Shown: in pieces, positions 23,401 through 26,400 of the stretch
Numbering within the stretch: the stretch's first letter is position 1
Layout: each line of letters begins with the position of its first letter
From: Pristiophorus japonicus
Taxonomy: Eukaryota
Direction: 5' to 3'
Length of the DNA stretch: 64,000 nucleotides
NCBI RefSeq assembly: GCF_044704955.1
Contig: NC_092002.1
Location: 11,842,001 to 11,906,000, forward strand
Notes under the pieces: model-generated
Told to the model about the DNA's origin: nothing
The model's input: only the letters and a program-made list of their open reading frames with translations
Databases searched by the model: none
Position numbers and translations under genes: made by a program

Positions 23401-26400
23401 ATGTACATGTCCGAGGTGATCCAGGCCTACGAGACCCTTCACGGTGAGGACATTGAAAGAAAGCAACGCGTGCATTTGTATAGCGCCTTTCGTGAGCTTA
23501 GGGCGTCCCAAACCGCTTCACGGCCAATGAAGTACTTTTGAAGCGTAGTTACTGCTGTAATGACGGAAACACGGCAGACGTCTTGCGCACAGCAAGCTCC
23601 CACAAACAGCAATGTGATAACGACGAGATAATCTGTTTTAGTGATAGTTGAGGGATAAATATTGGCCCCAGGACACCGGGGAAAACTCCCCTGCTCCTCT
23701 TCGAAATAGTGCCGTGGGACCTTTTGCGTCCACCCGAGAGAGCAGACGGGGCCTCGGTTTAAAAGGCCCCTTCCTAAAGACAGCACCTCCGACAATGCAG
23801 CGCTCCCTCAGCCTGCATTATGGGACTTGACCCCATGACCTTCTGGCTCCGAGGTGAGTGTGCTACCCACTGAGCCACAACTGACGGAGTTCGAAGTGCT
23901 CAACTTCCTTGTGTTTATTGGAATTCAGCAAGAACCCAGGCTTTAAAATGATGGAATTTCTATTGAAAATCGTCAGTGTGTGTTAATTTTGCTCGAGTGT
24001 CTGGTGTTGTGGCACTTCTCCCTGTATTTGCTCCAGCTCGTGAATCACTAGTTCAGGAATTTTTTTTTTTTTTTTAATAAATTCGTAGCCAATCGTTCCA
24101 ATTCTTTGTCAAATCACAAACGCCAGAGGTCACCTTGCACATGCCAAGGATCACTCTGCGCCAATGCTCTTAGCCAAAAGGCCTAGAGCCACTGCACCGT
24201 TCCTGGAAGTACTGCAATACCAGATTCGTGCCATGGAGGTGGATGGGTCAGGTCCCCCACACACCTCCGTGGAGGTGGATGGGTCAAGCCACCCCACCCA
24301 CCTCCTGTTTCCAAAAAAGCAAGCATATACCTTCCTGACCAGGGAGAAACCACCCGGAGGTCATGGTGGCTGGTCAGGTCAGTTATGCATGATCTTAGCC
24401 AAAAGGCCGAAATTTTGCTCCTCGACCGCCTGCCCTCGGCTGTGAGGTGGTGACTTCATCACCTCCATCTGATTGGCAGCCTCTTGGATTCACACACCTC
24501 CAAGATGAACATAAGCCGTCACAGAAAGCTTGTCTGGTGAGCTGCCTCCTCCTGGTTGTGAGCACGGTAGCACAGTGGTTATGTCAAACGAGCCAAAGGT
24601 GGGCAGCGGAAACGCTACAAGGACACCCTCAAAGCCTCCCTGATAAAGTGCAACATCCCCACTGACCCCTGGGAGTTCCTGGCCAAAGACCAGTCCGCCC
24701 TAAGTGGAGGAAGTGCATCTGGGAGGGCGCTGAGCACCTCGAGTCTCGTCGCCGAGAGCATGCAGAAATCAAGCGCAGGCAGCGGAAGGAGCGTGCGGCA
24801 AACCTGTCCCACCCTCCCTTTCCCTCAACCACTGTCTGTCCCACCTGTGACAGAGACTGTGTGGTTCCCGTATTGGACTGTTCAGCCACCTGAGAACTCG
24901 TGTTAAGAGTGGAAGCAAGTCTTCCTCGATTCCGAGGGACTGCCTATGATGATGATGAGTTTATCTCACTGGACCAGTAATCCAGAGGCCTGGGCTAATG
25001 ATCCGGAGACCCGGGTTCAAATCCCACCACGGCAACCGGAGAATTTAAATTCAGTTAATTAAATAAATCTAGAGTTAAAAAGCGAGTGTCGGTAATGGTG
25101 GTGATCACCATGAAACTAGTGTCGTAAAATCCCATCTGGTTCAGTAATGTCCTTTTCGGGAAGGAAATCTGCTGCCCTTACCCGGTCTGGCCGATTGTGT
25201 GACTCTAGACCCACAGCAATGTGGTTGACTCTTAACTGCTCTCTCAAATGGCCCAGCGAGACACTTATTCAAGAAGGCGGCTCACCACCACCTTCTGGAG
25301 GGCAATTCGGGATGGGTAATAAATGCCGGACATGTCCACATCCCGTGAATGAATTTAAAGAGACAAAATCTGCTTGCGGTTTCCTTTGGTCCTCGAGAAT
25401 TTACTCTGCTTATTTTAGTATTTTCTGCGAATTTGGACGCAACTGCCTCTATCCCTGCATCCCAATCATTGACACACACGGTGAATAGAGGCAGTTCCAG
25501 AATAGAACCCTGTGGGACGCCACTACCCACTTCCGACCACTCGCAAACTCCCCTTCATCCCGCACTCCGTTTCCTCCCTTTCCGCCCAGTTTCCAATCCA
25601 GTCGGCCAATGTCCGACAGGCAAGGAAATCTGCCGTGCTGAACCGGTCTGGCCGATTACCACCACCTTCTCAAGGGCCAATAGGGACGGGCAATAAATGC
25701 TGGCCTTGCCAGCGAATTAAATTTAAAAAAAAAAAAAAATGCTGGCCGTCTCCTCAGCCTGAGCGACCGTCGTGTTATTCGCGTCTTGTGATTAATTTTT
25801 TTTGTTGGTTGCAGCGAATCTGCCGCCGACGCTGGCCAAGTCGCAGGTCAGCAGCGTGCGCAAGAACCTGAAGCTGCATCTGCTGAGCGTGCTGAAGCAC
25901 CCGTCCTCCTTTGAGTTCCACGCCCAGATCACCACGCTGCTCCTGGACCTCGGCACGCAGCAGCAGGAGATCGCTCGCAACATGCCCAGCCTGAAGGACG
26001 TACGGAAGCGACACCGTGAGGAGGTGGAGCAGGGCACGAAGAAAATCAAAATCGGTAACATAGAAACACAAAATAGGAGCAGTAGTCGGCCATTCGGCCC
26101 CTCGAGCCTGCAGCGCCATTCAATATGATCATGGCTGATCCTCTATCTCAACACCATATTCCCGCTTTCTCCCCATACCCCTTGATGCCTTTTGTGTCTA
26201 GAAATCTATCTCTCTCCCTCTTCAGTGACTTGGCCTCCACAGCCTTCTGTGGTCGAGAATTCCACAGGTTCACCACCCTCTGAGTGAAAACATTTCTCCT
26301 CATCTCGGTCCTAAATTTCCTACCCCGTATCCTGAGACTGTGACCCCTTGTTCTAGACTTCCCAGCCAGGGGAAAACATCCTTCCCACATCCAGTCTGTC

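Follow-up and report, generated by a model that had tools for sequence, protein, structure and literature searches.

The window, a stretch of 64,000 nucleotides from Pristiophorus japonicus, carries SYMPK exons between 20452 and 57479 on the + strand and GEMIN7 coding sequence at 5661-6104 on the − strand. Two SYMPK exons (23273-23442 and 25814-26053, + strand), identified by the Pfam domain SYMPK_PTA1_N and by spliced contigs in the runs X5, X6 and X7, bound an intron, and inside it, antisense to the gene, lies a SINE derived from U2 and U1 snRNA (24058-24410, − strand). This insertion belongs to subfamily A of its family; its 353 bp include one copy of the target duplication, and its limits are defined by an empty-site contig and by genomic matches. 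The closeness of GEMIN7 to an snRNA-like element is taken as a coincidence.

From 5′ to 3′, the element consists of U2 nt 1-29, U1 nt 3-57, the 3′ half of U2 with a doubled stem-loop III, a second U2 piece, a tail and poly(A). The window copy, all of whose features lie on the − strand, retains a U2 head of nt 9-29 (24390-24410) in which every letter agrees with the host U2 gene; in full-length copies the head begins at U2 nt 1, and the intact 5′ region assumed in an earlier, sequence-only reading is therefore not a property of this copy. The same reading had proposed that the branch-point helix was lost and that a nested hairpin had taken the place of stems IIa/IIb. Both features are visible, with TGCATAAC standing where U2 has its branch-point strand, but the strand was not mutated in place: it was exchanged for a segment corresponding to U1 nt 3-57, stem-loop I, which aligns locally to host U1 and now forms the nested hairpin (24334-24383). 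Downstream, comparison with host U2 and with other copies places an Sm-like site at 24311-24320, where the U run is present and the A that should precede it is missing. Folding and repeat finding bear out a tandem duplicate of U2 stem-loop III at 24235-24305 (units 24271-24305 and 24235-24268; period 36, 2.0 copies, 88%). Stem-loop IV (24194-24231; Rfam U2 match and host U2 alignment) is retained but not quite intact, with a private change at 24224 and a loop that differs from that of host U2 at two positions. The letters originally quoted do lie on the − strand within 24193-24410, but the element continues to 24058, through a second U2 stem-I fragment lengthened to a bigger hairpin (24166-24189) and a family-specific tail with two hairpins (24076-24165), both recognized by sequence comparison, the tail being kin to those of the sister families F0 and F2, and then through a poly(A) tail of 16 A read directly from the sequence (24060-24075). 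A short, A/T-rich target-site duplication, apparent from the sequence and the empty allele, occupies 24411-24416, and its other copy at 24058-24063 overlaps the poly(A).

The empty site is represented in DNA run X1 by one contig that joins 23858-24050 to 24411-24610 with 7 letters between. Since this contig connects both flanks without the element, the window insertion is polymorphic. Its flanks are unrelated to snRNA genes and it ends in poly(A), so that neither an snRNA promoter nor a 3′ box accompanies it; host-gene flanks (promoter and 3′ flank) occur only around the copies in U2 gene arrays described below. Without a promoter, the window copy is most likely inert. It belongs to a young retroposon family and was inserted recently; it is not a drifted U2 gene.

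A chimeric family of U2 and U1 ancestry

In the 5.9 Gb genome searched, the 40 best other matches of the window copy are 97-99% identical and lie on many chromosomes. A LINE protein encoded in this genome shares 80% identity with a Mobula protein over 23% of its length, as would be expected of a cartilaginous fish. Patterns spanning diagnostic junctions gave 2,275 and 405 exact genomic matches and control patterns gave 0, so that the family numbers at least 2,680 copies, of which >99% are dispersed; the element is non-coding and measures ~345 nt plus poly(A). A junction fixed at 2,275 + 405 places, together with the existence of subfamilies, argues for a true family rather than for independent chimeric retrocopies, and the presence of the same chimeric junction in thousands of copies rules out a U2 pseudogene that arose through point decay. 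Target duplications of at least 7 nt flank 45 of 111 distinct sites, as opposed to 74 of 2,000 mismatched pairs; the former figure is a lower bound because the crude duplication finder overlooked visible ones. Tandem arrays of the element occur at 31 of the 111 sites. Among 136 near-full copies, 49 begin exactly at U2 +1, with no common sequence upstream. Run X8, from a second organism, yielded one 154-nt contig of depth 4, which is too small for us to claim the family in a second species, and coverage in run X9 is confined to stem-loop IV and represents ordinary U2.

The Rfam U2 model matches 24187-24415 with 45.5 bits (E 3.3e-7), just below its cut-off of 46 bits, and host U2 genes score 187-192 bits; the other Rfam matches of the element, to a prion pseudoknot and snoRNAs, were dismissed as chance. 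With true U2 and U1 genes from the same genome as references, the element follows host U2 up to nt 28-29 and is then unaligned until the Sm region. It differs from a U2 variant in that the branch-point strand and stem IIa are replaced by U1-derived sequence. Local alignment to U1 nt 3-57 is strongest in the oldest-looking form (score 79.5, 0/2000 shuffles) and in subfamily B (69, 0/2000), and falls to 38.5 in the window copy and 35 in subfamily C, scores reached by 9/2000 and 20/2000 shuffles, respectively. These scores indicate that what had appeared to be a new hairpin is U1 stem-loop I, rebuilt later; both the U1 5′ splice-site strand and the loop are altered in it. An unaltered U1 fragment is present at L026:375-408, at the 5′ end of a six-copy array.

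F0 consists of U2 without 9 nt of stem IIa, followed by U2 8-38 and a tail. F0 and F2 copies (L234:1960-2230, L213:532-790, L116:1840-2270) keep the branch-point strand, lack at least 9 nt of stem IIa and have the tail in common. A further subfamily (L262, L274, L279, L321, L323) has U2 nt 1-38, branch-point strand intact, before the U1-derived hairpin. The number of stem-loop III units also varies among cluster representatives, with one unit in 7 and three units in one. Read from alignments rather than from a rooted tree, the likely order would lead from a U2 gene to F0, then F2, then an old form in which the U1 segment accompanies a single hairpin III, and finally to the present subfamilies in which hairpin III is doubled. 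The Sm-like site reads A-U5-G, which we take to be the Sm-site consensus, in 49 of the 136 near-full copies and in the copies within U2 arrays, and lacks the A in 85 of the 136. In this set the A is absent from older-looking subfamilies and present in the youngest, including the variant found in U2 arrays.

The fold of the source RNA

The U2-like body was said to keep its fold, and in this respect the sequence-only reading is upheld: its 218 nt fold at −99.6 kcal/mol, as stable a structure was found in 0/200 shuffles, and the z-score of −4.45 is about equal to that of host U2 (−4.90). The further proposal, that the source RNA was selected for structure, had been expected to leave covariation among copies, and a lack of it was named there as grounds for rejecting the proposal. 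None of the two-sided kind was detected, either over 16 copies (0/78 pairs) or over 9 more distant sequences (0/33 pairs). The distribution of variants among 179 copies points the other way. We compared shared variants (in at least 3 copies) with private ones (in one copy), setting aside CpG transitions (7 and 2), two-copy variants, positions 36-92, which are rich in indels, and the end of the tail. Stem-breaking changes account for 0/34 shared and 24/69 private variants (Fisher p 1.5e-5), and 28/34 shared as opposed to 36/69 private variants fall at unpaired positions (p 0.0045), figures that apply to helices picked with the alignment already seen and to shared variants that are not independent events. 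The 6 shared variants outside unpaired positions all keep pairing. Selection on the fold of the source RNAs is thus supported by the variant distribution.

Tidy stems can also arise when the reverse transcriptase switches template at quasi-palindromes or slips on tandem repeats, and these processes could have shaped the element in the absence of selection, leaving its identity unaffected. The lack of two-sided covariation and the range of hairpin III from one to three units speak for such an origin. We nevertheless regard it as an unlikely, if not negligible, explanation, because the tendency of shared variants to keep away from stems is an absence of change and not a gain of pairing.

U2 genes, partner LINE and family RNA

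Eighteen copies of the family reside within tandem U2 genes at nt 39, and a U2 promoter is visible upstream of 17 of them. A motif taken from the loose ends of run X5 has 19 genomic matches, of which 16 are in U2 arrays (contigs C19, C1832, C1868 and C4309), two are dispersed copies that carry target duplications, and one is unrelated. The 16 array copies are identical where fully read, one of them beginning at a contig edge with the promoter out of view; the two additional array copies depart from them at 2 positions. An interrupted gene begins with the U2 promoter and continues with the element from U2 +1, its poly(A), U2 nt 39-191 and the normal 3′ flank. Poly(A) directly adjoins U2 nt 39 and the head of the element replaces U2 nt 1-28. 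Since this head stands for nt 1-28, the unit lacks nt 29-38, which contain the branch-point strand, and it shows no duplication. On two contigs the element occupies 6/29 and 4/30 units, and its array variant has both an A-U5-G Sm core and stem-loop IV. Other subfamilies are found at nt 39 in the C9 class of U2 genes.

The published material on Keno and Utopia used here places their 3′ junction at U2 nt 39 and describes the Keno endonuclease as AP-type (PMC4640811). A LINE of ~5.7 kb with open ORF1 and ORF2 lies in the C19 U2 array (L343:602-6678, − strand), with its poly(A) end at U2 nt 39. Its ORF2 product of 1,147 aa contains AP endonuclease, RT and zf-RVT domains (PF03372, PF00078, PF13966), and we call it Keno-type from its AP-type endonuclease plus RT and its U2 3′ flank from nt 39. 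A 5′-truncated SINE copy follows this LINE directly at the nt 39 site, and the LINE has a U2-like head of its own with one change in the branch-point strand. Comparison of the SINE tail with the 3′ ends of 30 zf-RVT LINE loci gave at best 10-11 nt, a level expected by chance, and the U2 head is the only sequence that the SINE and the array LINE have in common. As the tail resembles none of the LINE 3′ ends compared, the partner is assigned by the shared target only; the absence of a common tail also led us to reject a derivation of the SINE from the array LINE by internal deletion.

At 100 places in the genome, a poly(A) tract runs directly into U2 nt 39. Nearly all of the dispersed junctions that were read represent the window's family inside F0 or F2 copies, which keep the site and thus serve as targets themselves. 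In the part of the 100 that was examined, sequence of a sister family always followed the window's family and true U2 39-191 never did; consequently, read-through of master copies into U2 39-191 is something we infer rather than observe.

A second preferred site lies antisense within a Gypsy-like pol gene (Pfam) and accounts for 2/28 and 6/27 distinct sites in two position-ordered samples. The 28 poly(A) insertions there comprise 23 of the window's family, 3 of F2 and 2 bare A tracts; the latter (L192, L209) have long target duplications and are extreme 5′ truncations. A Tx1-like LINE end is also present at one of the 23, so that a LINE fragment shares the site at 1/28. Hitch-hiking within the Gypsy element was rejected because the host copies are 80-92% alike and both duplications and subfamilies differ. 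Because this site is unlike the U2 site and U2 genes hold only a minority of the copies, the dispersed insertions may be the work of a sister Tx1 family. The LINE fragment at L211, the first partner candidate, has an ORF2 84-85% similar to that of the array LINE; among 25 copies, only the query itself was at the Gypsy site, and it is retained as a candidate for the dispersed insertions. In two of 25 copies of a Tx1-like LINE (L230, L234), a SINE lies antisense at one common position where the 3′ UTR begins. Within the window copy's tail, 15 nt (24154-24168, − strand) match the Gypsy target ~50 nt upstream of the insertion point, exactly at L137 and at 14/15 positions in others; the match lengthens from F0 to the young subfamilies and may be due to chance.

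Whether any family member is transcribed was a further question raised by the sequence-only reading, and the answer is positive. Runs X5, X6 and X7, which are unlabelled and come from one study, were recognized as RNA by single contigs joining four SYMPK exons, and all three cover the element, in contigs that give no start, end or strand. At 24359 the array allele makes up 561,160 of 562,957 summed depth in X5, compared with 1,998 of 89,933 in DNA run X1, and it is represented by 0/185 in X6 and 0/216 in X7; because expression is poorly reflected in summed contig depth, we use allele make-up alone. The differences that dominate X5, 8 substitutions and a 7-nt deletion, all match the array variant. 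Since family RNA in this sample is almost wholly of that variant, the array copies are likely masters.

Mechanism and relation to known systems

We are confident that the window element was recently inserted and belongs to a U2/U1-derived SINE family with sister copies in U2 genes, directly behind the U2 promoter, that this promoter is the likely driver of their transcription, and that proteins of a Keno/Tx1-type LINE likely copy them to new sites. Pol II would start at U2 +1, transcribe the element together with its encoded A tract and probably continue into U2 39-191. The ORF2 protein of a Keno/Tx1-type LINE could then prime reverse transcription at the A tract, and at U2 genes the head of the element may pair with target nt 1-28 and so create a seamless 5′ junction. 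Array recombination would have multiplied the masters, and master RNAs with stems kept may propagate better. More speculatively, loss of U2 nt 29-38 may remove the Keno target, so that masters are not hit again, and loss of the branch-point strand, along with an altered and base-paired U1 strand, may keep the RNA out of splicing.

In a fuller version, which we consider probable although we hold it with clearly less assurance, the SINE uses U2 genes as a home base. It would home to the Keno site, rebuild the first 28 nt, capture a Pol II snRNA promoter and be amplified as an array unit (in roughly one unit of six, on two contigs). The product would be a tissue-restricted, possibly Sm-assembled chimeric RNA that has shed the branch-point strand as a safeguard against re-insertion and against poisoning of splicing.

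It is also conceivable that the array copies are a dead end and owe their number to turnover of the array, and that the family's RNA comes from dispersed copies driven by promoters next to them, as has been proposed for crocodilian SINEU. The dispersed state of more than 99% of copies would fit this explanation, as would the absence of the array allele, at the single site scored, from the family RNA of X6 and X7, and the two dispersed copies with the array motif could have supplied RNA. We consider it very improbable, given that the dominant alleles of X5 match the array variant throughout and that exact starts at U2 +1 are frequent among copies with nothing in common upstream. Very improbable as well is a domesticated variant snRNA or U2 mimic, which would assemble Sm and U2B''/U2A' proteins for a host role and leave the dispersed copies as retropseudogenes: a real U2 promoter, the abundance of RNA in one sample, the conservation of stems in shared variants, and the Sm core and stem-loop IV of the array variant speak for it, but the array copies interrupt U2 genes at a known retrotransposon target, encode poly(A), and belong to a family in which many subfamilies have succeeded one another, heads and numbers of hairpins changing among them, and whose commonest older forms lack the A of the Sm site. 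The element is a mobile retroposon whose replaced part comes from U1, and nothing examined points to a host role as the U2 mimic or variant snRNA of the sequence-only reading; we return to a SINE that is likely transcribed from U2 genes.

Such a SINE has parallels of several kinds, which we compare as far as the published passages drawn on describe them. It shares with Keno and Utopia the insertion site, with a 3′ junction at U2 nt 39 (PMC4640811), and differs from them in being non-coding and in having most copies outside U2 genes. In Drosophila rDNA, R2 SIDEs are LINE deletion derivatives that carry a 5′ ribozyme (Eickbush and Eickbush 2012, PMC3414825). Like the family described here, they are non-autonomous, occupy the target site of a LINE in a tandem RNA-gene array and rely on host-gene transcription (PMC3414825); unlike them, the P. 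japonicus SINE is made of snRNA pieces and also spreads genome-wide. Because its head restores U2 +1, it needs no 5′ processing, in contrast to R2 SIDEs.

The closest parallel is with SINEU-1, -2 and -3, which are described from crocodilians only, with none found elsewhere (Kojima 2015, PMC4494074). Our literature search, which included PMC5753468 and PMC5381603, encountered in the portions of text covered no SINEU outside crocodilians and no SINE in U2 genes; Repbase and Dfam were outside this search and may list the family. Both groups are retroposons of <500 bp assembled from U1 and U2 pieces with a U1- or U2-derived head, and both have a poly(A) tail, target duplications, tandem insertions and an internal oligo-T. 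An extra 5′ U1 piece occurs occasionally in each (at L026 here, as U1 extensions of SINEU-2 in crocodile), and U1 followed by U2 is the order of SINEU-2 as well. Each prefers one repeat, has a 3′ end unlike that of its partner LINE, and is linked to a Tx1-type partner by a common target. The window's family matches SINEU in each feature examined, by description and not by consensus sequences. The targets differ, being U2 nt 39 and Gypsy-like pol in P. japonicus and Mariner-N4 for SINEU, and an origin independent of the crocodilian elements is likely. Within the literature searched, this extends snRNA-headed SINEs beyond crocodilians.

The published account left the transcription of SINEU open, since snRNA heads have no internal promoter and no cDNA was found, and proposed neighbouring promoters for the crocodilian elements (PMC4494074). 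The P. japonicus family differs from SINEU in having RNA and copies behind a U2 promoter. With named candidate master loci behind that promoter, RNA that matches them, a candidate LINE that is intact and an insertion that is polymorphic, this active family makes the question directly testable, and it provides a case in which a small RNA cargo is delivered to one fixed site of a multicopy gene. If U2 genes do serve as its home base, the family would explain how snRNA-headed SINEs are transcribed and would show that this class has arisen repeatedly and independently.
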